From Halomicronema hongdechloris C2206 (lineage in GTDB: Bacteria > Cyanobacteriota > Cyanobacteriia > Phormidesmidales > Phormidesmidaceae): DNA of 32,000 nt. A program made the translations under genes and the position numbers. Shown one piece after another: positions 9,573 to 25,749 of this stretch (position 1 is its first letter; each line of letters opens with the position of its first letter). The stretch spans positions 1,440,001 to 1,472,000 of the forward strand of contig NZ_CP021983.2 of assembly GCF_002075285.3 (NCBI RefSeq). The letters run 5' to 3'. The notes under the pieces were generated by a model. That model saw only the letters and a program-made list of their open reading frames with translations. It was not told the DNA's origin and made no database searches.

Positions 9573-9707
9573 TATAATCATCATACTCATTGAAAATTGA
9601 AATTGAAAATATAGTTTAGTCAAATATATTGCCGGTGTCAGCTTCCATTTCTGATTTGATAAGCAAAATGAGAGTCTTGTCTAGCTTAAAAGATAGTCCA
9701 AGGTCCT

Positions 9708-10826
9708 ATGTCTTCATATGCTAAATCATTAAAGTTCTTCGCTGGCTTTTCAGCTATTTACCTAGCAGCTGTTGCTTGCATTAACCTTTGGCTAGATCCT
9801 TTCGGTTTGAGAAATCACGGAGGTAGACTTAGTCATGCTCGTCTTGTGAAGGCCATTCAGGTTAACCGACTTAATCCAGATGTTGTTTTCGTTGGTTCTT
9901 CCAGTGTAGCTATTGGCCTAAATCCTGAACATGAAGTGTTTCAAGACTATAAATCAGTTTATAACTTAGGTATCTTCGGGGCAAATTTTTACGAGTTAGG
10001 GCATTATTTTCGGCATGCAGCACATGGGGATAACCTCGAGAAGGCCTTTATTGCCTTAGACTTTTATGGATTTAACAAGTTCATGGAGGTAAAGCCCGGT
10101 TTTTCGGAAAGTCGACTAAATTCAAGGCGAATGCATCCTCGAGACTTTCTAGAGCTATATTTTTCGTTAGAGGCCTTGACTCTAATTAGGGATGCCAATG
10201 TAGAAGAAAACTATTTTGCTTCCAACGGACTTCTACCTAAACTTCAAAATTGGAATATACAAGACCGAGAAGAACTTTTTGCTAAGCATCTACAGCAAAA
10301 TATATTAGAGGAAGGAGGGATGTATTATGGAGATTATGCCCTTTCTGAGAAAGCATTTCAAGAATTAGCCCATGTTGTCTCACTGGCTCAAAAAGAAAAC
10401 ATCGACATTCAATTTTTCCTGCCTGCTCCTCATGCTACTCTTTTTCATTATGTCTTAGATACTCCCGAATATTGGACAATCTACAAAGAGTGGTTGCGGA
10501 AAATCGTCAAAATTTACCCAGTATGGGATTTTTCAGGATGTAATAGAATTACGACAAAGTCTGTAGATTCAAGTGAAGAGTATTATGAAGATCCACTTCA
10601 CTTTACTCCCAAAGTAGGGAGCCTGATGATTGAACGAGTATACGCACGTGAGTCAAGTGAACTTCTACCGAAATTTGGTATCTATGTAACGCCTGATAAT
10701 GTTGATAGCCATTTGAAGGAAGTTGAAAAGCAATGTGATCGCTGGAAACAGGAAAATCCAAAGACTATTGCATGGCTAGAAAGTCTAAACCTTAAGCCAG
10801 CATTAATATCTTCTCGTCAAGAATAG
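9708..10826 (+). CDS. N-terminally anchored SGNH/DltD/AlgJ-like putative extracytoplasmic acyltransferase, paralog 1
   Basis: Single N-terminal hydrophobic anchor. VVFVGSSSV is a candidate nucleophile block, and EDPLHFT is a DxxH block like SGNH block V, the DltD Asp/His or the AlgJ/AlgX DxHW. It lies directly downstream of the MBOAT. Confidence 0.6.
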   Translation: MSSYAKSLKFFAGFSAIYLAAVACINLWLDPFGLRNHGGRLSHARLVKAIQVNRLNPDVVFVGSSSVAIGLNPEHEVFQDYKSVYNLGIFGANFYELGHYFRHAAHGDNLEKAFIALDFYGFNKFMEVKPGFSESRLNSRRMHPRDFLELYFSLEALTLIRDANVEENYFASNGLLPKLQNWNIQDREELFAKHLQQNILEEGGMYYGDYALSEKAFQELAHVVSLAQKENIDIQFFLPAPHATLFHYVLDTPEYWTIYKEWLRKIVKIYPVWDFSGCNRITTKSVDSSEEYYEDPLHFTPKVGSLMIERVYARESSELLPKFGIYVTPDNVDSHLKEVEKQCDRWKQENPKTIAWLESLNLKPALISSRQE

Positions 10827-10905
10827 TTGAATGGATTAATCAGGAGCCTAGGAAATAGTATCTATAAACTTTACTCACTTATGATTTTTACTTATCTTTA
10901 GCAGC

Positions 10906-12009
10906 ATGTCTTATCATAGTAAATTTCTCAGGAACTTCTTTAGTTATACTGCAGCTTGTATGCTCGTTGTCTTGGGAGTTAATGCATTTGTAGACCCTTA
11001 TGGAATTCGTAAGGCTGGAGGACGAGTTGCAAATGATCGATTAGTCAAAGCTATTAAGGTTTCTCAAATAAAACCAAAGGTTGTCTTTTTAGGATCATCA
11101 GGTGTTGCTAGGGGACTTAATCCTAGTCATACTGCTTTTTCAGAAAGTAGACCAGTTTACAATTTGTCTCTTTTAGGGGCTAGTATTTATGAAATAAAGC
11201 GATATTTTGACTACGCGGTTGCGCATAACAAACTTGAGCATGCCATTATTGGCCTTGATTTCTATGCATTTAATGACTCTAGGGAGGTAAGGCCTGGTTT
11301 TTCAGAAACAAGACTGAATTCCCAATATATTTCCCCTAAAGATCTTTTAGGCATTTATCTATCTCTTGATTCCCTCAACCTAGTAATGAATCCTGATCAG
11401 AGAGGATATTATTTCGCTGATGATGGAACATATGAGCATCGAATTCAAATAGGCATAGAACGCCAGTTCGAGATAAAGCTTATTGAAGACTTTACTCAGT
11501 CCGAACAAATGTATTGGAACTATAAGTTTTCTGAGGCAACAATTGGTCACTTTCAGTCAATAGTTGAATCTGCCGATTCAGAAGGGGTTAGAGTTGATAT
11601 TTTTCTACCTCCGTTGCATGCAACTTTATTTTATTCTGCAATGATGTCTAACTACTGGCCAACTTACGAAAAATGGTTAAAGAGAATTGTTAATATTCAT
11701 CCTGTTTGGGATTTTTCGGGATGTAATACTATTACTACCGAGCCAATCAGCGGAGAAATGAATTGGTTTGAGGATCCATCCCACTATACTGAAGAAGTAG
11801 GTGATCTAATCCTTAATAAACTATCTGAAGCTGAGAGTGGAAAGTCACTAAGAGACTTTGGCCAATATGTGACATCTGAAAATGTAAATGAGCACCTCCA
11901 ACAGGTTAGATCTCAATGCCAAAAATGGTCAAATTCTAACCCTAATATTATGCATTGGCTAGAGGAACTTAACCTAATAAATCGAATGAAGATCTCAACA
12001 GCAGAATAA
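10906..12009 (+). CDS. N-terminally anchored SGNH/DltD/AlgJ-like putative extracytoplasmic acyltransferase, paralog 2
   Basis: Collinear with the previous protein end to end. Shared blocks: VVFLGSSGV, YNL, LDFYAFN, PGFSETRLNS, FLPPLHATLF, HPVWDFSGCNTITT, EDPSHYT. Confidence 0.6.
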   Translation: MSYHSKFLRNFFSYTAACMLVVLGVNAFVDPYGIRKAGGRVANDRLVKAIKVSQIKPKVVFLGSSGVARGLNPSHTAFSESRPVYNLSLLGASIYEIKRYFDYAVAHNKLEHAIIGLDFYAFNDSREVRPGFSETRLNSQYISPKDLLGIYLSLDSLNLVMNPDQRGYYFADDGTYEHRIQIGIERQFEIKLIEDFTQSEQMYWNYKFSEATIGHFQSIVESADSEGVRVDIFLPPLHATLFYSAMMSNYWPTYEKWLKRIVNIHPVWDFSGCNTITTEPISGEMNWFEDPSHYTEEVGDLILNKLSEAESGKSLRDFGQYVTSENVNEHLQQVRSQCQKWSNSNPNIMHWLEELNLINRMKISTAE

Positions 12010-12087
12010 AAATATAATTTTATGAATTATCGAACCTATTATTTAATAATAGGATAGTAGAAGCTAAAGTCATCATCTGGCAACACC

Positions 12088-13623
12088 ATGGAATTTCCAT
12101 TACAGCATAAAACTTCAATTTCTTTCTCTTCAGGTGATCTTGACCTTTTTAGCAAGGCAAGCCATGATCGTAACCCTTTGCATCTCTCCGAAGACTATGC
12201 TCGCAAAACTCCATTTGCCCAACGTGTAGTTTTTGGCGTTTTGGGTGGTTTATCTTGTTTAAAGTATTTACAGGACCGAGCAGATTTTCAACTGAAAAAA
12301 ATTTTTCTAGAATTTTTAGGTCCCTTATTTATTAATCAGTTTTATTCATTAGAGATAACTGAAAGTTCACAGGAGCAAGTAACTGCGCGGATTTTCGATG
12401 GTAGACGCCTAATGCTAAAAATGAAAGTGAATTTTCGACCAGGAAATTCACCGACCATTCAGGCCGTATCAGCACAAGCCTCCCGTACCGAGGCTGTAAT
12501 GTTGTCGCCATCAGAACTGACTAGGGGCATTAAGTTGGATGAAGCAACATATTGCCCTAATCTTGAAGCATTACGTATATTAGCTTATCAACTGAGTTTA
12601 CCTGAGAAAGGTGTTGGTGAAGTAGAGATAGCCACATTACTTTGGGCAAGTTACTTCGTGGGAATGGAGTTACCAGGATTCCAAGCACTTTTTTCTAAGC
12701 TAACTCTTAGCTTTGAAAATTCTTTACCCAATCTAAAAAAACCATTTTCCTATACTAGTTCATTAACCTATTTTGACGACCGCTACAATTTACTGCGCAC
12801 AAAAGCTGAGTTATCTGATAACGGTAAATCATTTGCTACTGGAGAAATCCAATCCTTTATTCGCCCTACTTCAACTATTAGTACTTCTCAATATCTCGAG
12901 ACTCTACTGCCGAGTTCTGAATTCTTAAAGGGAAAAGTAGCCTTAGTAACAGGAGCTAGTCGAGGTTTAGGGGCTGCAATTGCACAATCGCTAGCATTGC
13001 AAGGATGTACCGTTCTAGCTAACTTTCTCCGAAGTTATCCTGAAGCTAAATCGCTACAGAAAGCGCTAGAAAATGCACCTGGCCAAGTTATTTTGATGCA
13101 AGGTAATGCAGCGGAATTATCTTGGTGTCTTTCAGCTAAGCAGGAAATTATTTCTAGATATGGCAAGCTAGACTTCTTGATTTGTAATGCTTGTCCTGCT
13201 ATATTACCCCTCTGGTTAGAGCCAACAGCTGTTGATCGGGTGAATGAATATGTCGCTCAAAGCCTAGCTCTCATGAGTGTACCAATGTCTACCTTTCTCA
13301 GTTTAGTATCTGAGAGCTTAGGCTGGAACATTGTTATTTCATCAATCTATGCCAGTCAAGCTTTTCCGGCAGACTTACCTCACTACGTTATCGCGAAATC
13401 TGCAATTGAAGGTCTCACAAAGGTAGCAGCCTCTGAATACAAGGATATTAACTTTGCTATAGTAAGACCTCCCAAATTGCTGACTGATCAGACAAACACG
13501 CCTATCGGTAGACAAAATGCTATATCTGTCGAGAAAGTTGCCGTTTCTATCACAGAGCATTTAAGAAATGTATCTAATAAAACTCAGATAGATATATTAG
13601 AGAATATTTGGGAAATAGATTAA
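12088..13623 (+). CDS. Fusion protein: MaoC-like (R)-hydratase/dehydratase hotdog region + classical short-chain dehydrogenase/reductase
   Basis: N-terminus ASHDRNPLHLSEDYARKTPFAQRVVFGVL is the MaoC hydratase D-x-N-P-x-H motif. The middle, about 150 aa, is probably a second hotdog repeat. C-terminus has KVALVTGASRGLGAAIA (TGxxxGxG), ISSIYAS and YVIAKSAIEGL (YxxxK). Confidence 0.8.
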   Translation: MEFPLQHKTSISFSSGDLDLFSKASHDRNPLHLSEDYARKTPFAQRVVFGVLGGLSCLKYLQDRADFQLKKIFLEFLGPLFINQFYSLEITESSQEQVTARIFDGRRLMLKMKVNFRPGNSPTIQAVSAQASRTEAVMLSPSELTRGIKLDEATYCPNLEALRILAYQLSLPEKGVGEVEIATLLWASYFVGMELPGFQALFSKLTLSFENSLPNLKKPFSYTSSLTYFDDRYNLLRTKAELSDNGKSFATGEIQSFIRPTSTISTSQYLETLLPSSEFLKGKVALVTGASRGLGAAIAQSLALQGCTVLANFLRSYPEAKSLQKALENAPGQVILMQGNAAELSWCLSAKQEIISRYGKLDFLICNACPAILPLWLEPTAVDRVNEYVAQSLALMSVPMSTFLSLVSESLGWNIVISSIYASQAFPADLPHYVIAKSAIEGLTKVAASEYKDINFAIVRPPKLLTDQTNTPIGRQNAISVEKVAVSITEHLRNVSNKTQIDILENIWEID

Positions 13624-13664
13624 TGGTTTTTCCCTAGGAATTGAATTTCAGTTTCCTAAAGATA

Positions 13665-14811
13665 TAGCAATCCCAGTTGATTTATGAACAAGGTGAATAT
13701 TCTTCTATTTTAGAAAAATCGAACTTTTGATGATCTATAAAGAACTCAAACAGATACTTTACAGCGGGGAAAGAACGACACAACCTCCAAAATCTTCTCA
13801 ATGAATTTTTGGCTTGTAACCAAACATCTTCCACTGGATTTTGTTCTGGTGAATTGGGTGCAAATAGAATACATTTGAATTGCCATTCTGTCTCTTCCTT
13901 CCCATGATTGACTGTAGCTAAAAAATCTTTGATCTCTTGTGACTTATGATAACTAGCGCCATCCCAAATTAATGCGATTTGCTTCCCAGGATTTTGTTCC
14001 TGCAAGTACTTCATAAAAGCAACTGTATTCTCTCCATTCCCTTTCTCGTAAGGATGCAAAATAAATTCTTTTGTTTGATAGTTTAATGCGCCATAATATG
14101 TTTGCCTGATTCTCTCGTTTGTAATAGGGATTTCGATTCGCATATCTGTCTTGCCCCAGACATATCCACAAACATCACCCCAAAGGAGATGACACTCATC
14201 CAAAAAAAGTACAATCAATTCCCCAGACTCAATTTTGAACTGGTTTTGACGGATAAATCCTTGGATTTCTTCTCTTTTTTTTTGACTAGAGCTGGATCAG
14301 ATTTCGGGTTGGTTTTTTGAGATTTCTTCCAACTAATACCTGCTTCCGAAAAAAGTGTATAGTAGCTTTGCTTAGACTTGTAAATCACATCATAATGTTC
14401 ATCTAAATATGAAACTAATTCATCAAAGTTCCAGTAGTTTCTGGTTCTCAGCCACGAGATAATTTCTGTACGATCATCTGGGGTTAGGTAACTTTTTGAT
14501 CCTTGGTAGCCGAGTTTAATACCTTCAATGCCTTGTGCTTCGAATCTGTTCTTCCAATATGTAATAAAAGACTTGTTTATTCCCAGAAATTTGGTAATCT
14601 TAAAATATGGCTCACCCTCCAATGCCATTTTTACAGCCAATGCTCGCTTAAGCTCTCTTGAATCAGGATTACTACTTATAAAGTCTGATAGAATAGCACG
14701 ATTATCTACTTTTTGTTGGTGTTCTAATTGAAAACTATTCATGAGTACAACTGTATTGACAGCTTGATGATATTTATATACTACCCATTCTAAACTCATT
14801 TAGGGTTGCTA
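13665..14811 (-). mobile_element. IS630-family insertion sequence with TA target-site duplication
   Basis: Imperfect terminal inverted repeats start with TAGCAA (13665-13688 versus the reverse complement of 14788-14811, 17/24 matches by eye). TA flanks each end (13663-13664 and 14812-13). The size, about 1.15 kb, fits one two-frame DDE transposase. Confidence 0.8.
13682..14799 (-). CDS. IS630-family DDE transposase, two overlapping frames joined by a probable programmed -1 frameshift
   Basis: OrfA (14215-14799) has an HTH-type N-terminus. OrfB (13682-14218) carries DECHLLWGD, IWDGASYHKS and NSPEQNPVEDVW (D, D, E). The orfB frame is -1 relative to orfA and stays open back through an A9 run (T9 on the + strand, 14275-14283). 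Slippage there gives ...ALVKKKREEIQGFIRQNQFKIESGELIVLFLDECH. Confidence 0.8.
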
Positions 14812-14989
14812 TATGGCGTAATCTATTTTTTAGAAACTGGAATTCCAGTTGTACCAGAGCATGAACTCTCATAAACTGCACAAGATCTGGACGGTAGTAA
14901 CTCAGGAATAATTTCAACTACTCCAGAGTAACTGATAATGGCAGCATCTTAACTTTTTAAACAAGATATATATTGTCTGTCTTTTATCC

Positions 14990-15084
14990 AAAAATAACCA
15001 ATCAGCATGGCCAAAAAGGCAGCTTTACATAGAAAATTTTTACGATATGAGTGCAATATCTTCTGTCTTTTATTGGTTATTTTT
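14990..15084. repeat. Perfect 13-bp inverted repeat (AAAAATAACCAAT / ATTGGTTATTTTT), each arm preceded by the 12-bp direct repeat TCTGTCTTTTAT
   Basis: Inverted-repeat arms at 14990-15002 and 15072-15084 with a 69-nt spacer. Direct repeats at 14976-14987 and 15062-15073. Both lie in the 570-bp AT-rich spacer between the IS and the kdsB-like gene. Confidence 0.6.
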
Positions 15085-15434
15085 CATATATTTCTAGTGA
15101 AAGACTGTATAAATAAACTTTGAGAAATGACATAGATTAAATTCTATAAGGAACTTCTTGATTGTATGAAATCGTATTTTTTAATTATACTAACATAAAG
15201 ATTTTCTGAGATAATCTTATACATTTAAAAGTAATCTGTTTATTTTTAAGGATTACATAGATTATCAGCTAAATGAAGTTGATTTCATAAAAATCGGATT
15301 TTGCCATGTTTTTTTAATAAAGCGATTCATTATATCTAGATGTGGAATACGATATTCGCTTATCCTATTAATGCTCGGAAAACTCCAATATGAAATTGGA
15401 GAAAAACGGATATTTGAGGAGTTTAGAGCTAAGA

Positions 15435-16166
15435 ATGATGGCTAAAGTGACAGGGGTTATACCTGCCAGATATAAATCAACTCGCTTCGAGGGTAAGCCT
15501 CTCGCTATTCTTGAAGGCAAAACCATGATCCAAATGGTTTATGAGAAATGTTGTAAGAGCAAACTCTTAGATCAGATCATGGTTGCTACAGATGATCAGC
15601 GTATCTACGATAACGTCTTATCTTTTGGTGGAAATGCAATTATGACCGAAACCAATATTGCCACTGGAAGTGATCGTTGCTATGAGGCCGTTAAGTATGA
15701 TAGCTGTGATATTGTAGTCAATATTCAGGGTGATGAACCACTCATTGATCCGAACGTCATCGATATTTGTATTCAGGCCTTGATAGATGCACCAGAAGCA
15801 GTGTGCTCAACCCCAGTAGTCAAATCAAATAACCCAGACGAGATTAATTCTCCCCATGCAGTTAAAGTAGTACTCAATAAAAAACTTGAAGCACTTTACT
15901 TCTCAAGATATCCAATCCCTTTTTTTCGTAATAATCTAGATGATGAAATCTATTATCGACATATTGGATTGTATTGCTATCGTAAATATTTCCTAGAACA
16001 ATTTGTCTCTATGGCCCAAACCTTTTTAGAACTTTCCGAGTCATTAGAGCAGCTTCGTATTTTAGAAAACGGATATAAGATTCAGTGTTGCCTAGTTGAT
16101 TATGAATCAGTTGGAGTAGATACCCCAGAAGATTTAGAGAAAGTTAAGCGGCTTTTGAAAATATAG
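15435..16166 (+). CDS. kdsB: 3-deoxy-ulosonate cytidylyltransferase (CMP-Kdo synthetase family)
   Basis: Alignable by eye to E. coli KdsB over the full length: GVIPARYKSTRFEGKPL, VATDD, TGSDR, VNIQGDEPL, AVKVVL, ALYFSR, HIGLYCYR, LEQLRILENG, GVDTPEDLEKV. The ORF opens at ATG 15390, but homologs begin just before the IPARY block, so ATG 15435 is preferred. Confidence 0.85.
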   Translation: MMAKVTGVIPARYKSTRFEGKPLAILEGKTMIQMVYEKCCKSKLLDQIMVATDDQRIYDNVLSFGGNAIMTETNIATGSDRCYEAVKYDSCDIVVNIQGDEPLIDPNVIDICIQALIDAPEAVCSTPVVKSNNPDEINSPHAVKVVLNKKLEALYFSRYPIPFFRNNLDDEIYYRHIGLYCYRKYFLEQFVSMAQTFLELSESLEQLRILENGYKIQCCLVDYESVGVDTPEDLEKVKRLLKI

Positions 16167-16205
16167 ATTTTATTATTAATTGAATACTACTGGAACTAAG
16201 AGGAT

Positions 16206-17246
16206 ATGCAGATGTTGACTAAAATTCCGAAGATTTCTTGTTCTCTTTTGGCGGCATTAGATAGTGATTACTCCCTAACAGATGTTCTAAAAAAACTAGA
16301 TATCGTTGGTGTAGATATTATTCATTATGACGTCAGTGATAATGCAAAGACTTTAGATCTTAAGGAGATTAATAAATTACGTACTAGCACCTGCCTACCA
16401 TTTGATGTACATTTAAGTGTCGAAAATCCCGATCCATATCTAAAAGATGTTCAGCTTCAGCCAGAAGATTATTTTTGTCTTCATGTTGAAAATAATCTGA
16501 GCTGGGCACAACTTGAAGAAGTACGACATAAGGTTGGTTGTAATTTTGGTTTGGCAATTAACACAGACACTCCTGTAAGTGATCTATTTGACAAAGCACA
16601 AATTCTCGATTATGTGCTGTTTATGTCTGCCACCCCTGGTGTTTCTGGTGGACAGTTTAACGATCAAGTAATCAGTAAGATCAAGGCATTTCGTCGCGCC
16701 TTTCCAGAGGTTAAAGTGCACGTAGATGGTGGTGTCAACCATTTATCTGCTGCCCTATTAAGAGAGTTAGGAGTTGATGTCCTCATCTCTGGTTCTTACA
16801 TCTTAAAAAATGAAGATTATCTAGTTCAGCTAACTAAGCTGTTTGGTAAGAACCTATACCTGCGTGTTGCCGATATTATGAGGGCTCATGAACAGGTACC
16901 TCGTGTCACCCCAGATACTGACATTTGTCAGACAGTCTTAGAAATGAATACTAAGTTGGTTGGTTGCACTTGTGTCGTAGATCATGACAACCGCTTGCTT
17001 GGTCTAGTGACGGATGGAGATGTTCGTAGAAGATTGATTCTTCAACCTGATTTGTCTAGTCTAAAGGCAAAGGATTTAATGGCAAAGCATCCCTTTGTTA
17101 TTACACCAGATGTGCGACTCCTTAATTTGCTACGGGAACTAGATAAGAGACGTGCAGGATTTGATGTGATTCCAGTTATAGATGCATCTGAACAATGTAT
17201 TGGTCTTGTCTGGTTACGAGATATTATTTCAAGTCACGCTTTATAA
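16206..17246 (+). CDS. Fusion: ribulose-phosphate 3-epimerase-like TIM barrel + KpsF/KdsD-like CBS-domain pair
   Basis: N-terminal about 215 aa carry RPE blocks IIHYDVSD (H-x-D...D), FDVHLS, MSATPGVSGGQF, VHVDGGV and ISGSYI. C-terminal about 125 aa are VADIM...LLGLVTDGDVRRRL...VIPVID...IGLVWLRDI, two CBS motifs resembling the tail of arabinose-5-phosphate isomerase. Alternative start ATG 16212 has GAGGA 7 nt upstream. Confidence 0.7.
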   Translation: MQMLTKIPKISCSLLAALDSDYSLTDVLKKLDIVGVDIIHYDVSDNAKTLDLKEINKLRTSTCLPFDVHLSVENPDPYLKDVQLQPEDYFCLHVENNLSWAQLEEVRHKVGCNFGLAINTDTPVSDLFDKAQILDYVLFMSATPGVSGGQFNDQVISKIKAFRRAFPEVKVHVDGGVNHLSAALLRELGVDVLISGSYILKNEDYLVQLTKLFGKNLYLRVADIMRAHEQVPRVTPDTDICQTVLEMNTKLVGCTCVVDHDNRLLGLVTDGDVRRRLILQPDLSSLKAKDLMAKHPFVITPDVRLLNLLRELDKRRAGFDVIPVIDASEQCIGLVWLRDIISSHAL

Positions 17247-17297
17247 GCTAGCAAACAGATTTCTTGATTCTCTCAGTACATAGATCTAGGTAAGGAT

Positions 17298-18320
17298 ATG
17301 ATTATTAAACTCAGCCAATCTTCTACCGATATGGCTCTAAAGCACCTGGTGAAATGGTTTGCTCAGCAAGATGTTGAAGCCCGTCAGATTAACTGGGGAG
17401 CTCAGGTATTATTGGTTACCTCTTCGAAATGGAAAGGGGACGCTGACTATCTCAAAAGTATAGATGGGGTTGAATCCGTTACTGAGATGACAGCAGATTA
17501 TCAACTCTGTACTCGTAAATTTCAACCTCAAGACACCGTGATTGATTTAGGTGACGGCGTCATTTTTGGTCGTGGTGCAACTGTCATGATGGCGGGTCCC
17601 TGTGCGGTTGAGTCAGAAGACCAAGTCATGCGGACTGCTGAATTTTTGCGTAGTAAGTTTGACATTAAAGTATTTCGAGCGGGGGCATTTAAGCCTCGCA
17701 CATCACCCTACACATTCCAAGGCCTTGCAGATGAAGGACTAAATTTGTTAGCCAAGGTTCGTAAAGAATTTGGCATGAAAATTATCACTGAAGTTAAAGA
17801 TACAACTCACCTGGCAGCAGTCGCTGATGTAGCTGACATCATCCAAATTGGAACCAAGGCCATGTACAACTTTTCCCTTTTGGCTATGTGCGGTCAGCTT
17901 AAGCAGCCAATTGTCTTAAAGCGGGGCTTTATGACAACAATTAAGGAGTTCTTGCAGGCAGCTGATTTTATTCTTAGCAGTGGTAACTCTAAGGTTATTC
18001 TATGCGAGAGAGGTATTCGTAGCTTTGAACCTCAAACCCGTTTTTGCTTAGATGTTTGTTCTGCTGCTTTAATCAAAGAGTTAAGCCATCTGCCCATTGT
18101 TCTCGATCCCTCACATGCCATGGGTATTGCAGCTCAAGTGCCTCTTGTTGCTCAATCAGCTGCGGCTTTAGGTGTTGATGGACTATTAATCGAGACTCAC
18201 CCTGATCCTGCTAATGCAAAGAGTGATAAAGAACAAGCACTGTCTTTTGAGGAATTTGGTCGAATAGTGCCAGTTCTAGATAAAATTTGCACTGCAGTAG
18301 GCCGGAGGCTGATTGCGTGA
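17298..18320 (+). CDS. Type I-beta DAHP-synthase-like PEP-utilising aldolase with Thermotoga-type N-terminal ferredoxin-like domain; substrate uncertain
   Basis: MMAGPCAVES (metal Cys), FRAGAFKPRTSPYTFQGL (a DAHPS-type KPRTS block, not the KANRSS block of KDO8P synthase), IIQIG, VLKRGF, ILCERGIRSFE, LDPSH, IETHPDP. The N-terminal about 90 aa (...SIDGVESVTEMTADYQLCTRKFQPQDTVIDLGD) resembles the regulatory domain of T. maritima DAHPS as I recall it. Confidence 0.75.
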   Translation: MIIKLSQSSTDMALKHLVKWFAQQDVEARQINWGAQVLLVTSSKWKGDADYLKSIDGVESVTEMTADYQLCTRKFQPQDTVIDLGDGVIFGRGATVMMAGPCAVESEDQVMRTAEFLRSKFDIKVFRAGAFKPRTSPYTFQGLADEGLNLLAKVRKEFGMKIITEVKDTTHLAAVADVADIIQIGTKAMYNFSLLAMCGQLKQPIVLKRGFMTTIKEFLQAADFILSSGNSKVILCERGIRSFEPQTRFCLDVCSAALIKELSHLPIVLDPSHAMGIAAQVPLVAQSAAALGVDGLLIETHPDPANAKSDKEQALSFEEFGRIVPVLDKICTAVGRRLIA

Positions 18321-18985
18321 GTTCCCTTCTCCTTGACTCCATTCTTGATAGTTGCCAAGCAGTCATCTTTGATATGGATGGCGTGATAGCAGATACTGAA
18401 CCACTTAAGTTTCAGGCTTATCAATTTGTATTTCGAGAGGAGTATGGGATTGAGCTACCAATCGAGGATATAGCTTGGCGAGGTATGAAAGAGCAGTCTG
18501 TAATTGCCTATTGGTTCAATAAATTTCAGCTGGTGGGTGATCCTCAGAAACTAATTGAGGATAAGCGAGCTGCCTACCATTCTCTTTTGGTGCAAGGTAA
18601 AATCACAGCAATACCTGGCATCATGGCATTTATCAAATATCTTCGATCGCTGGGCAAGTTGCGGGCAGTTGCCACGAGCTCTAGTTGCCAAGAGGCGGTT
18701 ATGGTATTAGAAGCTCTGCATATAAGGGATGCCTTTCATCAGGTTATAACTCGAGATGATGTGCAAAGAATGAAGCCTGATCCAGAAGTTTATCTTGCTG
18801 CAGCATCAGCCTTAGGAGCCAATCCATCTAATTGCATAGTCTTTGAAGATAGTCAGTCGGGAGTTGGTGCTGCTAAGGCAGCTGGAATGTTTTGTGTGGG
18901 AGTGTTAACTTCATTTTCAAGAAAATCTCTTGGGCCCGTCGACCAAGTAATCAATGATTTCACAGATTTAGCTATAAATTTTTAG
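18317..18985 (+). CDS. HAD-superfamily hydrolase, subfamily IA (beta-phosphoglucomutase/sugar-phosphatase-like)
   Basis: Motif I VIFDMDGVIADTEP, motif II AVATSS, motif III KPDPEVY, motif IV VFEDSQSGVGAAKAAGM. The in-frame GTG at 18317 overlaps the upstream stop (GTGA, 18317-18320), which suggests translational coupling. The ORF track opens at 18287. Confidence 0.8.
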   Translation: MSSLLLDSILDSCQAVIFDMDGVIADTEPLKFQAYQFVFREEYGIELPIEDIAWRGMKEQSVIAYWFNKFQLVGDPQKLIEDKRAAYHSLLVQGKITAIPGIMAFIKYLRSLGKLRAVATSSSCQEAVMVLEALHIRDAFHQVITRDDVQRMKPDPEVYLAAASALGANPSNCIVFEDSQSGVGAAKAAGMFCVGVLTSFSRKSLGPVDQVINDFTDLAINF

Positions 18986-19282
18986 AATTTACAATGGAAA
19001 TGTTTTCTAACCATGGAATATCTCTTTGCGTCATGACTAGAATTTAAGTCACTTTTTTGGCTTAAATCCAAGCTTCAAAAGCTAATAGCAGAGAAAAAAT
19101 CCAGGAATTCTCTCATCTATATCATATAAGTATCTATTAAAATCTTTATAACCCTCAAAATCCTGAAAATGTTTCTAGTTTAGTCCTAAAATTTCTCCAT
19201 TAGTAGAATTCTTAGCCCAAATTTAAGCTTATTGTGGCGAACAAACCTTAATATTGAGACTGTCTATAATTAGAATAAAAAT

Positions 19283-20659
19283 ATGTCTACCAAGTTTCTT
19301 AAAGATACTATCCGGAAAATAATAGAACCACTAGAATCATCGATTTTGTCAGACAAATATTTTGGACTTCAAAAAAGCCTTGGCTATTCGGATAGGCTGA
19401 ATCTAGTTTGTAAGTATGCTCAGAACAAATTCAATTCCCAATCTTCGGAAGCATACCCTGAGATTACTTTCCTGCTTTATTCGAAGGCCTGTGAAAGGTT
19501 GTTAATACCGTTAGTGTTTAATTTATTACAGCGCCCAGAAGTTCAGGATGGAAAGATTCATGTCAATGTGATCGTGTTGTTTGGTATCCATCGCCTCAAA
19601 CTAATGGATTCTAATTTAGAGGAGTTGCAGAAGATGAGATGCCAAATTCAAACGGATTATTTTAGTTTGATACGTGCCTGCTATCAACCTAACCAAAAGC
19701 TAGTTGTGCTTTGCCTAGATCATCGTAAGGTTTATAGATATCACTTTTGGGGTGTCGACACCGTAGATACTTTGAAAAGTCACGGTGTAAGTACACTTTC
19801 TATTCAGCACGGTGGAACTCGTGCTGACAGTGTTGAAGAATTGGCTTCTGCAGCTTCAGATATGGTTCTGGTATGGGGAAAGCGAGTCTACAGAGAAATC
19901 GTGGAAAGATACAACGGAGATCCTCGCAGGTTTCACATAGTTGGTAATCCTTTACATGATCGGTTAGCTAATATTGATAATGTTCAAGTTCAAAGCCAAT
20001 TTAAGGACCACTATCCAGAAGTAAGTTCACAGCTAGGTCAAAAACACGTAGTTCTCTTAGCAACCTGTCTTCATACTGAATACCGAGGCATGGAGAATGA
20101 GGTGCAAATGTATCGAGATTACATTCGACATATTTATAGTAGTATTGATTTTTCTCGTACACTACTTCTAGTTAAGATGCATCCTCTCGATACATTAGCT
20201 CCTAATCTTTACATTCAAGCTATTCCTGATGAGAATTCTAAAAAATCAATAATAGTCATTGAGCCTACAGTCTCTAATTTAGATATTTACTCATTATTGT
20301 CAATTTCTGAGCTCCTAATAACCCGTGCCTCAACAGTTGCTGAAGAAGCAATGTTGATGGGAAAAAATGTTATTTCATTTGACCTTTTGCCAGACGGTCC
20401 CTCAAAGAACTATAGGCATTTAGAGGAGTATGGTAGCTACACTACTGTTTATGCAAACCCAGAAAACGAGCTAAAAAAAGCAATCAATTATTCTCTATCT
20501 GAGGCAGTATCAGAGCAGAATAAAAATACTTCTCTCATTGAAGAGGAGTTAACTTGCAGTTTAGATGGTCATTCAACCGATAGAGCTGTCAATGAAATTT
20601 TAACGTACTTTTGGCATAAAAACTATCAAAACTATTATGAAAACGGTTGCACTTGTTGA
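19283..20659 (+). CDS. GT-B-fold protein of the 2-epimerase / capsule-synthesis (KpsS/KpsC, TagF)-like superfamily; candidate glycosyl (ulosonate?) transferase
   Basis: Blocks SIQHGGTRADS, FHIVGNPLHDRL, LLLVKMHPLD (HP motif) and LLITRASTVAEEAMLMGKNVISFD resemble the two Rossmann halves of GT-B enzymes of this superfamily. The exact family was not resolved by eye. Confidence 0.4.
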   Translation: MSTKFLKDTIRKIIEPLESSILSDKYFGLQKSLGYSDRLNLVCKYAQNKFNSQSSEAYPEITFLLYSKACERLLIPLVFNLLQRPEVQDGKIHVNVIVLFGIHRLKLMDSNLEELQKMRCQIQTDYFSLIRACYQPNQKLVVLCLDHRKVYRYHFWGVDTVDTLKSHGVSTLSIQHGGTRADSVEELASAASDMVLVWGKRVYREIVERYNGDPRRFHIVGNPLHDRLANIDNVQVQSQFKDHYPEVSSQLGQKHVVLLATCLHTEYRGMENEVQMYRDYIRHIYSSIDFSRTLLLVKMHPLDTLAPNLYIQAIPDENSKKSIIVIEPTVSNLDIYSLLSISELLITRASTVAEEAMLMGKNVISFDLLPDGPSKNYRHLEEYGSYTTVYANPENELKKAINYSLSEAVSEQNKNTSLIEEELTCSLDGHSTDRAVNEILTYFWHKNYQNYYENGCTC

Positions 20660-21896
20660 TGCTAATCACGGTCGCGGTCATCATCTAACTTACATGAGGT
20701 TCTTTTGTAGAACATTACTAGAGTTAGGATATCGCACCTTGGTGTTTTATCCAGAACCTGATGCTGTGATAGATTGGCTCAAAATACATTTTCCTGAACT
20801 TATAGAGAACTTATATGTCTTTAGAATTGACGAATATGCTCATCGTAAAGTACCTCTAATCGGGAAAATTTCCTCTAAATTGCAACCTCTAGTGGTAATA
20901 GCGAGATGGAGGTATACCAACAGAATTATCAAGCAGGCAGTGAAGGCAGTTGGGCATGAACCTGATTTAGTATTCTTCAACTGGCTAGATAATTACTTAA
21001 GTTATTTTCTATCTCATCATCTTATCGACCTGATTTTCCCATTCAAGTGGTCTGGCATTTACTTTAGACCAGGAGACTTACGCTTCAAGAAGCGCACTTT
21101 CCTATCTCACTATGCGATCGCAAGATCACCTCGGTGTCAGGCCTTGACTCTTTTGGATGAAGAATTCTCTAGGATCATAGAAGATAAGTTAAATATCCCG
21201 ATTATTCCATTTCCAGATTTAACTGATGAAACGCCACCTGATACAGCACTAGGTGTTATTAAGCAGATAAAATTGCAAGCAAGGGACAGAAAAATTATTG
21301 GACTTATTGGTTCTTTAAGTAAGCGAAAAGGACTCTTTACTTTTCTTGAAGCAGCTCAAAGGCTAGTTGAAAAAGATTATTTTTTTGTCCTTGCCGGTCC
21401 TCTTAATAAAGCAACCTTTCACCAGGAATATGATCAAAAACTTTCAGATGAGTTTCAAAGATTGGAGAGAATGATAAAATCACCACCAGAAAATTGCTTT
21501 TTCTATCTCCAATCAATTCCAGACGGTGCCGAATTTAATGCTTTTATAAATATATTTGATATTCTATTTGCAGCCTATGAAAATTTTCCCTACAGTAGTA
21601 ATATTTTGACCAAGGCAGCTGTTTTTCGGAAACCGATTATTGTAAGTGATGGTTTTTGCATGGAAAAGAGAGTGAAAAGATTTCAGTTTGGATTGTCAAT
21701 TCCAGAAGGAAATGTAGCCGCATGTGTTAAGGCAATTCAACTTCTGTCTGAGTCATCTTCATCAGATGGTCTTAGCCTTGAATTCGATTTTGAAGGCTAT
21801 AAACAGCTTCATTCGACAAAGAGACTTGGCGAGATCTTTACAGCACTTTTAGGAGATCATGAGCTAAAGACAGCATTGAATGCTAGTAATTCTTAG
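20637..21896 (+). CDS. Glycosyltransferase, GT-B fold (GT4-like)
   Basis: MKTVALVDANHGRGHH N-terminus. C-terminal half has IGLIGSLSKRKGLFTFLEAAQRL...FFVLAGPL...ILTKAAVFRKPIIVSD, typical of the donor-binding domain. It overlaps the upstream gene by 23 nt. Confidence 0.6.
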   Translation: MKTVALVDANHGRGHHLTYMRFFCRTLLELGYRTLVFYPEPDAVIDWLKIHFPELIENLYVFRIDEYAHRKVPLIGKISSKLQPLVVIARWRYTNRIIKQAVKAVGHEPDLVFFNWLDNYLSYFLSHHLIDLIFPFKWSGIYFRPGDLRFKKRTFLSHYAIARSPRCQALTLLDEEFSRIIEDKLNIPIIPFPDLTDETPPDTALGVIKQIKLQARDRKIIGLIGSLSKRKGLFTFLEAAQRLVEKDYFFVLAGPLNKATFHQEYDQKLSDEFQRLERMIKSPPENCFFYLQSIPDGAEFNAFINIFDILFAAYENFPYSSNILTKAAVFRKPIIVSDGFCMEKRVKRFQFGLSIPEGNVAACVKAIQLLSESSSSDGLSLEFDFEGYKQLHSTKRLGEIFTALLGDHELKTALNASNS

Positions 21897-21940
21897 GAAT
21901 GTTTTATTTAGAATAATGAGTCTATACCCAGGGAGTAGAG

Positions 21941-22996
21941 ATGAAAGTATTAGTGACTGGTTCAAGCGGCTTAATTGGTTCGGAAGCCGTTGAGTACTAT
22001 GATCGGGAGGACCATGAGGTCATTGGCGTAGACAATAACATGCGCGCTGAGTTCTTTGGTCCTAAAGGGGATACCATTTGGAATCTCAGTCGCCTGAAGG
22101 ATAGTACTCAAAACTTCGAACATCATAATATTGATATTCGTGATCGTGCTGCAGTCTTTCAGTTATTTGAGGAAAAGCCCTTCGATCTCATTATCCATTG
22201 TGCTGCACAACCCTCCCATGACAGGGCTTGCCAGATTCCTTTGCTAGACTTCGAAGTGAATGCATTGGGTACGGTTAATCTTCTAGAGGCAACTCGCCAA
22301 TTTTGCCCTGAGGCCGTATTTATTCATATGAGCACTAACAAAGTTTATGGAGATGCTCCTAACGAGGTACCTCGTATCGAATTAGAAAAGCGCTACGATT
22401 ATGAGCGCTCTGAAGACTATAATGGCATTTCGGAAGAATGTCGGATCGATCGGTGTTTACATTCTCTATTCGGTGCATCTAAGGCTGCAGCCGACATTGT
22501 AGCTCAGGAGTATGGTCGCTATTTTGGCATGAAGGTGGGAATCTTTCGCGGCGGTTGCTTGACTGGACCTTCTCACTCCGGTGTAGAGCTGCATGGCTTT
22601 TTATCTTACCTAGTGAAAGTAGCTGTCAATGGTGATACTTACAAGGTGTTTGGCTATGAAGGCAAGCAAGTTCGCGATAATATCCATAGCTATGATGTGA
22701 TCCAAGCATTTGAAGCATTTCGTTGTAATCCGCGCCCTGGGGAAGTTTATAATCTAGGAGGTGGACGAGGAAATAGTGTTTCTATCTTGGAAGCCTTTGA
22801 TCTAGTCAGTGACTTAGTAGGGCGAAAAATCCAGTGGATCTATGTCGACCAAAATCGCATCGGTGACCATATCTGCTATATTTCTGACCTCAGGAAAATG
22901 AAATCACATTTTCCTGGGTGGGATATTACTCGTAGTCTAGGCAATATTTTAGAGGAAATGGTTGAGGCCGAACAGGCACGATTAGTTCGGGTCTAA
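21941..22996 (+). CDS. Extended SDR, CDP-paratose/tyvelose 2-epimerase-like NAD-dependent epimerase/dehydratase
   Basis: [14 protein letters not shown] (GxxGxxG), [68 protein letters not shown]. The expected YxxxK Tyr is Phe (codon 22469-22471). Confidence 0.75.
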
Positions 22997-23067
22997 TAGA
23001 ATCAGATCTGGACAGATATGATGTATCGGTGATTCTGACAGTTAATAGCCTTGAGTCTTAAGTTAGC

Positions 23068-23100
23068 ATGGGTGGGAATTCACCCGCCCATATGCTTTTT
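23068..23100 (+). terminator. Rho-independent terminator after the epimerase gene
   Basis: ATGGGTGGG-aattca-CCCGCCCAT is a 9-bp GC-rich stem (one G-U pair) with a 6-nt loop, followed by ATGCTTTTT. A T-run is present only on the + strand. Confidence 0.65.
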
Positions 23101-23195
23101 GAATTCTCGAATTTCAGAGACCTGTAAATTCTCATAGAAAACTTACAATAGGCCTTACTATTTCTTGAAATTAATTGTAAAGATTAAGATTTACG

Positions 23196-24359
23196 ATGTT
23201 TAAATTAGCTATTTCTAGAAGGCTAAATGTCCTAAACTTAGTTTCTGATAAACCGACATCAAAAACTTGGCTCCCATCTTTGGATGGATTACGTGCTATT
23301 GCACTACTGTTAGTTTTTCTAGAGCATGTCACCGGCAATGTTTTTGTCGAAGACGCTAGTAACGATGGATCTATTTCTACCGCTTTTTTGAATTTTGGTG
23401 ATGCTGGAATGGGTCGCTCAGGAGTTTATCTGTTTTTTGTACTGAGTAGTTTCCTGTTAACATCACAGCTACTTCGTCCGGGCATAAGACTTAAAAGTTT
23501 TCAGCTATGGATTAATTATGTATATAAACGATTGATCAGAGTCTATCCATTATATGTTTTTGTTTTAGTAGTCTATACTATTTTTTCTAGCTTCCAATAT
23601 AACATTCAAGACTTTTTTGAGCATGTAACTTTACAAGAGGCTGGAAATCATTTCTGGACAATTCCAGTAGAAGTAAAATATTACATATTGCTACCCAGCA
23701 TTGCACTCATAATAACCAAGCTTTTGAGGCGTAGACTATCGCTAGTTCTTATCGCTTTTACCGGAATTTCAATTATACTAAAGCTATTTGAATCGTCCAT
23801 TTTGTCTCTGGATCGTTTATCGCTTTTACCTCATTTGCCGATCTTCTTTATTGGTTCTATAGCAGCTTTAATTCATGTGGATTTATTTAGCAAGAGGGAC
23901 ATTGGTGTCAAATATAAGACCTGGATGGAGATAGTATCTATACTTTCAATACTCGCCATACTACTTAGCTATAAAACTGCTGCCAGTTCCTTTCTTTGGA
24001 ATCTTATTTTTGGCTATGAAATGCCAGAAATTCCTTCAAATCATTGGTTATATATCCTACATGGATTGCTTTGGTCAATCTTTCTGATATCTCACTTAAA
24101 TGGAAGAGGTTGGATAGGCGGTTTGTTAGCTTGGAAGCCACTACGATATATCGGTGTAATTAGCTTTGGTATGTATCTATGGCATATTGCTATCTTAGGT
24201 TATCTAAATGCTCATTTAGCTGTGCCTAGCATGATTAAATTTATTGCTATTTTCTGTGTTACATCAGCTGTTTCTACAGTGACTTACATTATGATTGAGA
24301 GACCTATAACGAAATTTAAGTTTCCATTTAACCAAAAATCTTACTACTTGACTAGATAG
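23196..24359 (+). CDS. Acyltransferase family 3 (OafA/WecH-like) integral-membrane O-acyltransferase
   Basis: LPSLDGLRAIALLLVFLEH N-terminal signature. About 10 predicted hydrophobic helices. ISFGMYLWH near the C-terminus. Confidence 0.8.
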   Translation: MFKLAISRRLNVLNLVSDKPTSKTWLPSLDGLRAIALLLVFLEHVTGNVFVEDASNDGSISTAFLNFGDAGMGRSGVYLFFVLSSFLLTSQLLRPGIRLKSFQLWINYVYKRLIRVYPLYVFVLVVYTIFSSFQYNIQDFFEHVTLQEAGNHFWTIPVEVKYYILLPSIALIITKLLRRRLSLVLIAFTGISIILKLFESSILSLDRLSLLPHLPIFFIGSIAALIHVDLFSKRDIGVKYKTWMEIVSILSILAILLSYKTAASSFLWNLIFGYEMPEIPSNHWLYILHGLLWSIFLISHLNGRGWIGGLLAWKPLRYIGVISFGMYLWHIAILGYLNAHLAVPSMIKFIAIFCVTSAVSTVTYIMIERPITKFKFPFNQKSYYLTR

Positions 24360-24379
24360 AAATTGCTAGATAGAAATTG
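24352..24379. repeat. Perfect 14-bp tandem duplication CTAGATAGAAATTG x2 spanning the stop codon of the AT3 gene
   Basis: 24352-24365 and 24366-24379 are identical. The TAG stop of the AT3 gene is at 24357-24359. Confidence 0.9.
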
Positions 24380-24495
24380 TTTGTTGCATTATGGCCTACA
24401 TGAGTTTCAGATTTGTCTGTCAAGCCTTAATATTTGTCTTTTTTGGGCTAAGAGTGGTGTTTTAAGGCTCGGAAATAGCTATTGATGCTAGCAAT

Positions 24496-25749
24496 ATGAA
24501 ATCTCTTATTTTGAGTACTTCGGACATTGAGGGGGGAGCTGCTAGGGCTGCCTATCGACTTCATCAGGGATTGCAGGCAATGGGCAGTCCCTCGCAGCTG
24601 TTAGTAAGAGCTAAATTTAGTGGCGACAAAAGTGTGATCGTTGAAAAATCAATGCTCACTAAGTTGGGGCCACCGATGAATACGCTGATGATGCGGCGAT
24701 ATCCCCAGCGGCAGCGCAAGTTGTTCTCATCCCAGTGGTTTCCGGATGCGATCGCATCTCAAGTTGCCCGTCTCAACCCCGACGTGGTCAATCTTCACTG
24801 GGTCAGCAATGGGTTCTTGCGCATTGAGACCCTAGCCAAACTGAAAAAACCCCTGTTTTGGACCTTGCAGGACATGTGGCCCTTCACCGGCGGCTGCCAC
24901 TATAGCGAGGCCTGCGATCGCTATCAACAGGCCTGTGGTCGCTGCCCCCAACTCAAAAGCAATCGTGAGCGTGATCTCTCTCGGTCAATATGGCAGCGTA
25001 AACGCAAGGCCTGGAAGGGCATTAACCTGACCATCGTCACCCCCAGCCATTGGATGGCAGATTGTGTCCGGGCTAGTTCTCTATTGCAGCATCGGCGGGT
25101 AGAAGTCATCCCGTTCTGTCTGGATACTTCACTATACCGCCCACTCCCCACAGCCTTGGCCCGTCAGGCCCTGAACCTGCCGGCAGACAAACGCCTCGTC
25201 TTATTTGGGGCCCTATCCGCCACTTCCGATCACCGCAAAGGCTTTCATCTACTTGTGCCGGCCCTGAAGCGCCTCAGTCAGCAAGCTCAGTGGCAAGACA
25301 CCGTTGAGTTGGCCGTCTTTGGTAGCTCTGCCCCGGCTACCCCTGTTGACCTAGGGTTCAAGGCCCATTACCTAGGCTCCTTTCAAGACGATCTAAGCTT
25401 GGCGTTGATTTACTCAGCCGCCGACGTCATGGTAGTGCCATCCCTCTACGAATCCTTCGGCCAGACCACTTCGGAAGCCCTAGCCTGCGGTACGCCAGTG
25501 GTTGCCTTCAATGCGACGGGGCCTAAAGATGTGGTCGACCACCAACTGAACGGATATCTGGCCAGCCCTTACGACGTCGACGATTTAGCCCATGGCATCG
25601 GCTGGATCTTGGCCGACCCGGAGCGACATCAACGGTTGAGTCTACAAGCGCGAGAAAAGGCAGAGCATGCTTTTCCCTTGCGGCGCCAAGCCCAGGCGTA
25701 CCTAACCCTATTTGAGCAGGTCCTGAGCCAGTCCGCTGCGACTGCTTAG
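24496..25749 (+). CDS. Glycosyltransferase family 4 (GT-B, retaining type), GC-rich host-like composition
   Basis: GGAARAAYRLHQGL N-terminus. C-terminal PSLYESFGQTTSEALACGTPVVAFNATGPKDVVDHQLNGYLA is an E-x7-E-type motif. It contains two HIP1 sites (24748-24755 and 24914-24921). Confidence 0.85.
   Translation: MKSLILSTSDIEGGAARAAYRLHQGLQAMGSPSQLLVRAKFSGDKSVIVEKSMLTKLGPPMNTLMMRRYPQRQRKLFSSQWFPDAIASQVARLNPDVVNLHWVSNGFLRIETLAKLKKPLFWTLQDMWPFTGGCHYSEACDRYQQACGRCPQLKSNRERDLSRSIWQRKRKAWKGINLTIVTPSHWMADCVRASSLLQHRRVEVIPFCLDTSLYRPLPTALARQALNLPADKRLVLFGALSATSDHRKGFHLLVPALKRLSQQAQWQDTVELAVFGSSAPATPVDLGFKAHYLGSFQDDLSLALIYSAADVMVVPSLYESFGQTTSEALACGTPVVAFNATGPKDVVDHQLNGYLASPYDVDDLAHGIGWILADPERHQRLSLQAREKAEHAFPLRRQAQAYLTLFEQVLSQSAATA

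Follow-up and report, generated by a model that had tools for sequence, protein, structure and literature searches.

A DAHP synthase-like enzyme of Halomicronema hongdechloris C2206 belongs to a distinct clade and is a candidate Kdo-8-phosphate synthase of a glycan locus

Introduction

The type I-beta 3-deoxy-D-arabinoheptulosonate 7-phosphate (DAHP) synthases (DAHPSs), such as the Thermotoga maritima enzyme (1RZM/1VR6/3PG9), and the 3-deoxy-D-manno-octulosonate (Kdo) 8-phosphate (Kdo8P) synthases (KDO8PSs), represented by KdsA (TIGR01362; Aquifex 1FWW, Escherichia coli 1D9E), belong to the same superfamily and share the aldol chemistry of phosphoenolpyruvate (PEP). The 32,000-nucleotide stretch analyzed here (the window; positions 1,440,001–1,472,000 of contig NZ_CP021983.2 of the cyanobacterium Halomicronema hongdechloris C2206) carries a gene at positions 17298–18320 for a protein of this superfamily, hereafter the synthase. 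By sequence, the synthase belongs to the I-beta DAHPS branch and falls outside KdsA; by context, it would work like KdsA. We consider it probable that the synthase is a DAHPS-derived KDO8PS that has kept PEP as the donor and changed its acceptor, and that its gene belongs to a CMP-Kdo cassette of four genes within a glycan island of low GC content.

The synthase shares with T. maritima DAHPS the two-domain architecture (ferredoxin-like domain and (β/α)8 barrel), 43% identity, the metal ligands, the KPRTS motif, and four of the five PEP-binding basic residues. It differs from that enzyme by R186K, N187A, and Q189Y (T. maritima numbering), by the lack of basic residues after DPSH, by N249F, Y224F, and G311K, by exchanges of conserved residues in the N-domain and linker, and by its context, which is a Kdo-type operon rather than aromatic biosynthesis. 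With KdsA it would have the product and the pathway position in common; the neighbours are of the same kind (KdsB, KdsC, and KdsD or an analogue), and the group of homologues to which the synthase belongs, here called the K-clade, occurs in genomes that lack KdsA. Unlike KdsA, the synthase has KPRTS for KANRS, GTKAMYN for PAFLCRQ, a short β7-α7 loop, and an added N-terminal domain of the regulatory type.

Two further systems offer comparisons at the level of the locus. As with the kpsF/kpsU duplicates of E. coli group 2 capsules, a polysaccharide locus here carries its own Kdo-supply genes, and the CMP-Kdo synthetase (CKS) and the CBS-domain pair encoded in the window are closest to KpsU and KpsF/KdsD, respectively. 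In contrast to the capsule locus, the window locus has an Rpe-type isomerase barrel instead of a SIS domain as well as its own synthase and HAD-IA phosphatase, and a core Kdo pathway is missing from the host altogether. The BagF/FevY paralogues of DAHPS (NF041229) are likewise I-beta homologues recruited to dedicated clusters, those of secondary metabolites; they make DAHP for aromatics, unlike the synthase, which lies in a glycan/CMP-sugar cluster and scored 260 bits against NF041229 (cut-off 700).

We found no paper on the K-clade, on an enzyme combining an Rpe-type barrel with a CBS pair (Rpe-CBS) in Kdo synthesis, or on Bacteroidota that lack KdsA. New in this study are the residue set that defines the clade, the contrast between K-type and R-type gene neighbourhoods, and the finding that carriers which keep WaaA, KdsB, and KdsC lack both KdsA and KdsD.

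Results

Sequence, structure, and active site of the synthase

The synthase scored 234 bits against PF00793, 380 bits against NF006421 (cut-off 335), and 319 bits against TIGR01361 (cut-off 267.75), and public sources label it DAHPS. Its score against the KdsA model TIGR01362 was 129.8 bits, below the cut-off of 314. In a phmmer search, it was aligned to T. maritima DAHPS 1RZM over residues 1–337 with an E-value of 1.8e-85. An AlphaFold (AF2) model computed with 47 homologues (predicted local distance difference test score, pLDDT, of 93.8) consisted of an N-domain followed by a barrel. The strands (E) and helices (H) of the N-domain, E2–5, H11–23, E28–33, E36–41, H49–54, and E58–62, follow a β-α-β-β-α-β order. 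By Foldseek, the top structural match of the model was full-length 1RZM with a template modelling (TM) score of 0.85, and the root-mean-square deviation of the barrel to 1ZCO was 1.9 Å. KDO8PS structures ranked behind 1RZM, with TM scores of 0.60–0.70 and 24–30% identity. A preliminary description of the gene had noted a likeness to Thermotoga-type I-beta DAHPS that extends to the N-terminal ferredoxin-like domain, and both the alignment and the model bear this out.

Ligand contacts were assigned from PMC6362186 and general background on the family. The metal ligands C102, H273, E299, and D310 are all present in the synthase, as had been described, and so is KPRTS (K132–S136); all of them are 100% kept in the 87 clade members compared below. 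Both in the clade and in the canonical group, 100% conservation was found for the PEP ligands R127, K132, K208, and R238 (numbering of the synthase), for R134, T135, and D310, which bind erythrose 4-phosphate (E4P), and for the metal ligands. The fifth PEP ligand, the arginine of the GAR motif (Arg186 in T. maritima, position 187 here), is lysine in the synthase, and the charge is kept. This arginine belongs to a G-(A/S/T)-R-N-x-Q-N block, contacts the PEP phosphate, and has been called a completely conserved PEP site; the published list of DAHPS PEP ligands does not include the GRRD block of T. maritima (PMC6362186).

These assignments divide what the preliminary description had proposed for two altered blocks, namely that both correspond to PEP-phosphate contacts. 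The proposal stands for the arginine of the first block in DAHPS and falls for GRRD, which is not among the listed ligands and varies between enzymes. It also fails for KDO8PS, in which the position of the GAR arginine is occupied by Phe (PAFLxRQ). In the sequence comparison with the canonical enzymes, Lys for Arg was the sole change in a PEP ligand. The suggestion that the handling of PEP or the donor itself might differ is not supported, given the four invariant basic ligands and the conservation of charge at the fifth.

Residues and phylogeny of the K-clade

The synthase was compared column by column within a sequence set of 120 database homologues, 80 loci from species genomes, 80 metagenome loci, and sequences from whole-genome comparisons. 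In the alignment with 1RZM, the first block reads IIQIGARNAQNF in T. maritima and IIQIGTKAMYNF in the window (nt 17841–17873). The canonical I-beta form of this block is Q-x-G-(A/S/T)-R-N-x-Q-N, with R in 20/20, N in 20/20, and Q in 19/20 sequences. In the synthase and 86 other proteins it is G-(T/A)-K-(A/S)-M-(Y/F)-(N/D), with K in 87/87, and the combined signature of K187, A/S188, and Y/F190 was found in all 87 clade members versus none of 24 canonical sequences. These differences are not due to chance, and the consensus of this block and its alteration had been described correctly. Position 249 is equally discriminating, with N in 20/20 canonical sequences versus F in 87/87 clade members (N249F), and M220Q, Y224F, S254C, P257A, G311A/K, and K69Q are further fixed differences of the clade. 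Several N-domain and linker residues of the canonical enzymes (V4, G33, G42, P67, and K69) are also exchanged.

The second block gave a weaker contrast. At least one K or R occurs at positions 277–279 in 18/20 canonical sequences versus 16/87 clade members, and the depletion of basic residues is therefore a tendency only. The loss of basic residues noted earlier is hence real as a trend, but the consensus GRRD against which it had been read is Thermotoga-specific, since canonical enzymes have GKSSL, GLSGL, GIRAK, and other sequences there. Because of this variation, GRRD was rejected as a conserved PEP-phosphate contact.

The K-type sequences formed one clade apart from the canonical R-type I-beta DAHPSs and KdsA (FastTree SH-like support, 98; IQ-TREE SH-aLRT, 99). 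Subclade A, which includes the synthase, contains sequences from cyanobacteria, Clostridia/Bacillota, and metagenomes, and subclade B comprises a large set of Bacteroidota sequences. As judged from these sequences, the K-clade descends from within DAHPS I-beta and not from KdsA. The earlier view that the synthase is a paralogue with a new function, with its place in a glycan locus and not in the shikimate pathway, is supported by the separate clade, by two other DAHPSs in the genome, and by the Kdo-type context described below.

Gene neighbourhoods of K-type and R-type loci

Neighbourhoods were tallied across 160 loci, which are not phylogenetically independent. A Kdo-type neighbour, defined as an Rpe-CBS homologue, KdsC, KdsA together with KdsD, a KdsB-like gene, or a HAD-IA gene within 3.5 kb, was present at 93 of the 101 K-type loci versus none of the 55 R-type loci; when only K-type loci with at least 1.5 kb of flanking sequence were counted, the proportion was 63/64. 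In most loci, the gene immediately upstream of the K-clade gene encodes an Rpe-CBS homologue. The commonest operon, found at 41 loci in Bacteroidota, consists of Rpe-CBS, the K-clade gene, and KdsC. In every subclade-A locus with downstream sequence (L004, L006, L007, L128, L129, and L152), the next gene after the clade gene is a HAD-IA gene, and in Bacteroidota KdsC takes its place. Where a SIS-type KdsD adjoins the clade gene (kdsA-kdsD-K in Paludibacteraceae and SIS-kdsA-K in L074), Rpe-CBS is absent, which fits D-arabinose 5-phosphate (A5P) as the common intermediate of both enzymes.

The window-type cassette recurs in a metagenome-assembled genome (MAG) of the Elainellaceae, in Geitlerinema sp. 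BBD, and on contigs from metagenomes (L004–L006 and L128). A wide distribution of the K-clade in cyanobacteria was rejected, as the clade was not found in 300 other sampled cyanobacterial genomes at E ≤ 1e-110. The Geitlerinema locus also contains a 470-aa fusion (L006:12780–14192) of KdsA (TIGR01362, 405 bits) and KdsC (TIGR01670, 168 bits) in the same glycan cluster, adjoining a methyltransferase gene.

As a positive control for the aromatic-pathway context of I-beta enzymes, a canonical R-type DAHPS with the ferredoxin-like domain closes a run of trpB, trpA, and DAHPS genes in Marinoscillum luteum (L122:693–3721). R-type I-beta DAHPS domains were also found in open reading frames (ORFs) of 655–674 aa in Desulfatitalea and one other genome (L076:1078–3048, L081:109–2076, and L209:211–2235); these may be fusions with a second domain or over-extended ORF calls.

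Occurrence of KdsA, KdsD, WaaA, and DAHPS in carrier genomes

The complete host genome, a single contig of 5.58 Mb, contains two ordinary DAHPSs outside the window, an AroFGH-type I-alpha enzyme and a canonical I-beta enzyme, so that no DAHPS role is needed for the synthase, and an ordinary Rpe is encoded elsewhere (G000:C1:2169435–2170070). KdsA, SIS-type KdsD, and WaaA were not found in this complete genome, and the window CKS is its only PF02348 gene, without a second CKS. Because KdsA, KdsD, and WaaA are absent, the CKS of the operon would have no substrate unless the operon makes one.

In Bacteroidota, genomes with both Rpe-CBS and a K-clade gene (the pair) were compared with an even sample of the phylum. 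In a first set of 33 pair-bearing genomes, KdsA and KdsD were each found in 0/33 and WaaA in 30/33; in five further genomes, KdsA and KdsD were each found in 0/5, KdsB in 5/5, and WaaA in 4/5. Overall, the 38 pair-bearing genomes had neither KdsA (0/38) nor KdsD (0/38), and 34/38 had WaaA; KdsB was found in each of the five genomes in which it was sought. In the even sample of the phylum, 182 of 251 genomes had KdsA. The K-clade occurred in five genomes of this sample, four of which had Rpe-CBS and no KdsA, and the fifth had kdsA 1 kb away. No match to the KdsA model was found in 50 of the 251 genomes, and the five of these that were rechecked had no PF00793 protein at all; 14 further checked genomes of the sample had only R-type DAHPS and no KdsA (examples from these two groups are G027, G032, G036, G048, and G052; G007, G012, and G017). 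The distribution of the clade is thus complementary to that of KdsA/KdsD.

A second PF00793 match was present in approximately 20 of 30 pair-bearing genomes and was of the DAHPS-chorismate mutase (DAHPS-CM) fusion type as judged by size and score, four such proteins having been scanned; DAHP supply is therefore covered in roughly two thirds of the genomes with the pair. Type II DAHPS was considered as an explanation for the missing DAHPS in the genomes with only a K-type protein and was rejected, because it was found in 0/12. The clearest case of a clade gene in place of KdsA is the isolate M. luteum, in which KdsC (TIGR01670, 145 bits) directly follows the K-clade gene, WaaA is present, KdsA is absent, and the canonical DAHPS of the trp operon is accompanied by a third PF00793 match (366 aa) that is DAHPS-CM-like by size and score only.

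The four-gene cassette and the glycan island

The synthase gene is the third of a tight same-strand run that consists of the CKS, Rpe-CBS, synthase, and HAD-IA genes and is followed by genes for glycosyltransferases, a short-chain dehydrogenase/reductase, and an acyltransferase (Table 1). The whole glycan locus is contained in a low-GC island (window positions 5500–24500; 34–40% G+C versus 51–59% in the flanks), which two short minus-strand ORFs (13682–14799) divide into two modules. Pfam and NCBIfam profiles of the window proteins revealed no aromatic-pathway gene near the synthase.

The CKS passes the kdsB equivalog cut-off (TIGR00466, 202 bits, cut-off 155; NF003952, 300 bits, cut-off 193). 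Its closest solved relative is the E. coli capsule protein KpsU (1GQ9, E = 5e-52), and the motifs PARYxSTR..GKPL, QGDEP, LEQLR, and GVDTP are unbroken. For the CBS part of Rpe-CBS, the top match was kpsF/KdsD (TIGR00393, 5.7e-18). The barrel keeps the His/Asp/His/Asp metal ligands of the epimerases, and both the MDGxFVPN loop and the cushion Met of the HLM motif are changed: the loop IHVDVMDGRFVPN is replaced by IHYDVSDNAKTL, with a deletion of four residues, and HLM by HLS. As read from the sequence, these changes suggest a substrate without the C1 end of a ketose. With the first TTG taken as its start, the HAD-IA ORF shares 34 nt with the end of the synthase gene (18287–18320); its true start is probably further downstream, and translation of the two genes may be coupled.

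Table 1. Features of the synthase gene and the surrounding cassette (window coordinates)
Feature	Coordinates	Strand	Evidence
KdsB/KpsU-like CKS, 258 aa, first cassette gene	15390..16166	+	TIGR00466, NF003952, 1GQ9
Rpe-type TIM barrel fused to KdsD/KpsF-type CBS pair, 346 aa; putative A5P supplier	16206..17246	+	PF00834 and two CBS
Putative Kdo-8-phosphate synthase (K-clade, DAHPS-I-beta-like PEP aldolase), 340 aa	17298..18320	+	PF00793, NF006421, 1RZM match, clade placement
N-terminal ferredoxin-like (regulatory-type) domain, residues ~1–65	17298..17492	+	AF2 secondary structure, alignment to T. maritima DAHPS N-domain
KPRTS motif (in DAHPS, the site for the phosphate of the aldose phosphate), kept	17691..17705	+	K132–S136; R134, T135, and S136 in 87/87 clade members
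β4-α4 block IQIGTKAMYNF (R187K, N188A, Q190Y), clade signature	17841..17873	+	Alignment to 1RZM; canonical IQIGARNAQNF
β7-α7 block DPSHAMGIAAQ: metal ligand His273, then loop without basic residues	18105..18137	+	T. maritima DPSHSGGRRD
HAD-IA phosphatase (beta-PGM/YqaB-like); putative sugar-acid 8-phosphate phosphatase	18287..18985	+	PF13419 (1e-32), TIGR02009 (142 bits)
Two overlapping GT-B glycosyltransferases after the cassette; candidate CMP-sugar users	19283..21896	+	Pfam/NCBIfam matches; syntenic in L004 and L006

Discussion

Proposed pathway

In the pathway that we propose, Rpe-CBS would supply A5P, acting either as a ribose-5-phosphate 2-epimerase, by analogy with allulose-6-phosphate 3-epimerase, or as a ribulose-5-phosphate isomerase. 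Conversion of ribose 5-phosphate to arabinose 5-phosphate is plausible, as it corresponds to the conversion of allulose 6-phosphate to fructose 6-phosphate minus C1. The K-clade enzyme would then condense PEP with A5P to Kdo8P by the metal-dependent mechanism of DAHPS and KDO8PS, the HAD-IA enzyme would remove the phosphate, and the KpsU-like CKS would provide CMP-Kdo to the neighbouring glycosyltransferases for a surface polysaccharide. A precedent for the phosphatase role may be GPP2, a HAD-IA enzyme. In plants, the phosphatase acting on Kdo8P is reportedly GPP2 instead of a KdsC (preprint 10.64898/2026.05.02.722439).

Condensation of PEP with an aldose phosphate is the most likely reaction because the metal site and the PEP site are intact, the replacement of Arg by Lys keeping the charge. 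The change would concern the acceptor and not the donor, since the remodelled β4-α4 and β7-α7 loops are those that contact the acceptor in KDO8PS. In that enzyme, the Arg of PAFLxRQ (Aquifex R106) binds the phosphate of A5P, and the β7-α7 loop closes over A5P; PDB titles among the structural matches ("r106g kdo8ps with pep and a5p") agree with the A5P role of R106.

Several observations weigh against a Kdo-8-phosphate synthase. The acceptor site looks tetrose-sized by sequence, as KPRTS is kept and both KANRS and the extended β7-α7 loop are missing, and the Kdo8P activity proposed for the clade is deduced from sequence and context. In some genomes (L046, L051, L065, L074, and G123), KdsA and the K-clade gene are neighbours, and in Geitlerinema sp. 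BBD (L006) the true KdsA-KdsC fusion adjoins the full cassette. A Clostridia MAG locus (L007, 5492–11517) has no CKS; its trio of Rpe-CBS, K-clade, and HAD genes is flanked by genes for a sugar-1-phosphate nucleotidyltransferase, an RraA-like aldolase, and a 601-aa thiamine diphosphate (ThDP) enzyme, which hints that in Gram-positive carriers the ulosonate is processed further, e.g. decarboxylated. About a quarter of the sampled Bacteroidota genomes have neither KdsA nor the clade, which the proposal leaves unexplained, and most genomes in the census are MAGs of unknown completeness. Finally, the K-clade protein is the sole PF00793 member in 10 of 30 pair-bearing MAGs, six of which have chorismate synthase; this could reflect incompleteness or a DAHPS activity of the clade protein.

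Alternative explanations

The presence of KdsA and a clade gene in one genome implies either redundant isozymes or different products, and the second option leads to an alternative that we regard as less likely but as a serious rival: the clade would make a 3-deoxy-2-ulosonate phosphate other than Kdo8P, and the CKS would activate the dephosphorylated product for the glycan. The Rpe-like partner would act as an epimerase at the carbon next to the carbonyl of an aldose phosphate, e.g. from erythrose 4-phosphate to threose 4-phosphate (ribulose 5-phosphate to xylulose 5-phosphate minus C1), and the K-clade enzyme would join the resulting epimer to PEP, e.g. to give 3-deoxy-lyxo-heptulosonate 7-phosphate, DAHP itself, or a C8 epimer. 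This explanation would accommodate the DAHPS-like KPRTS motif and short β7-α7 loop, which suit a tetrose, and a barrel that retains the epimerase metal ligands and alters the loop covering C1–C2 of the ketose. It would also account for the KdsA-KdsC fusion with the cassette in L006, for the joint occurrence of kdsA and a clade gene in L046, L074, and G123, and for the L007 trio, which is paired with a ThDP enzyme in place of the CKS. However, it would require Bacteroidota that lack KdsA and KdsD and have WaaA, KdsB, and an adjacent KdsC to build their lipid A-core on a non-Kdo sugar. Moreover, clade genes without Rpe-CBS occur beside KdsD, so that their substrate is available from KdsD, and the window CKS scores above the kdsB equivalog cut-off. 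Nor does the coexistence with KdsA call for a different product, since capsule loci are well known to carry duplicate Kdo-pathway genes, KpsF and KpsU beside KdsD and KdsB; given this known redundancy of Kdo supply, we weighed the coexistence as isozyme redundancy. The specific form of this alternative, in which the clade and its Rpe-like partner make an undescribed 3-deoxy-ulosonic acid instead of Kdo (a lyxo-heptulosonate from an epimerised tetrose phosphate, with the skeleton of 3-deoxy-lyxo-heptulosaric acid (Dha), or a C8 epimer), appears unlikely to us. To our knowledge, the biosynthesis of Dha has not been described. Were this form true, a new sugar would occur in a cyanobacterial glycan and even in the lipid A-core of Bacteroidota without KdsA, and the Rpe-like enzyme would catalyse a new aldose-phosphate 2-epimerisation.

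The sole-member genomes raise the question of whether the synthase could be bifunctional or promiscuous, taking both E4P and A5P; it would then act as DAHPS and KDO8PS in genomes without another family member and, in the present host, chiefly as KDO8PS. Such an enzyme would explain the 10 of 30 pair-bearing Bacteroidota MAGs without another PF00793 protein and the retention of KPRTS, and I-beta DAHPSs such as that of Pyrococcus furiosus can use sugar phosphates with five carbons. Among 12 genomes without a third family member, chorismate synthase was found in nine and type II DAHPS in none. That chorismate synthase itself is missing in three of these 12 fits MAG incompleteness as the cause of the missing third member; the DAHPS-CM-type match in approximately 20 of the 30 genomes and the two ordinary DAHPSs of the host also speak against bifunctionality, which we consider improbable. 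More remote still is an ordinary DAHPS isozyme for aromatics that carries a conservative Arg-to-Lys exchange and lies in a glycan island by chance. The thresholds of NF006421 and TIGR01361, the public name, and the presence of all catalytic residues but one are what such an isozyme would show. Yet residues fixed in the canonical enzymes (R, N, and Q of the first block, Y224, and N249) are exchanged throughout a monophyletic clade, Kdo-type neighbours occur at 93/101 clade versus 0/55 canonical loci, two other DAHPSs are present in the genome, and no aromatic-pathway gene is nearby; we find this explanation hardly tenable.

Implications

If the synthase and its relatives are Kdo-8-phosphate synthases, an essential envelope pathway that is targeted by drugs would have its first two steps carried out by enzymes not yet assigned to it, in many Bacteroidota as well as in glycan islands of cyanobacteria and Firmicutes. 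Annotation pipelines would then misname the two genes "3-deoxy-7-phosphoheptulonate synthase" and "ribulose-phosphate 3-epimerase", and reconstructions of aromatic and lipopolysaccharide biosynthesis would be distorted. The exchanges R187K, N188A/S, Q190Y/F, and N249F and the β7-α7 loop would make acceptor-length specificity directly testable, and the partner enzyme with the Rpe barrel may catalyse a new reaction. In the K-clade, KDO8PS activity would have arisen from DAHPS stock for a second time and independently.

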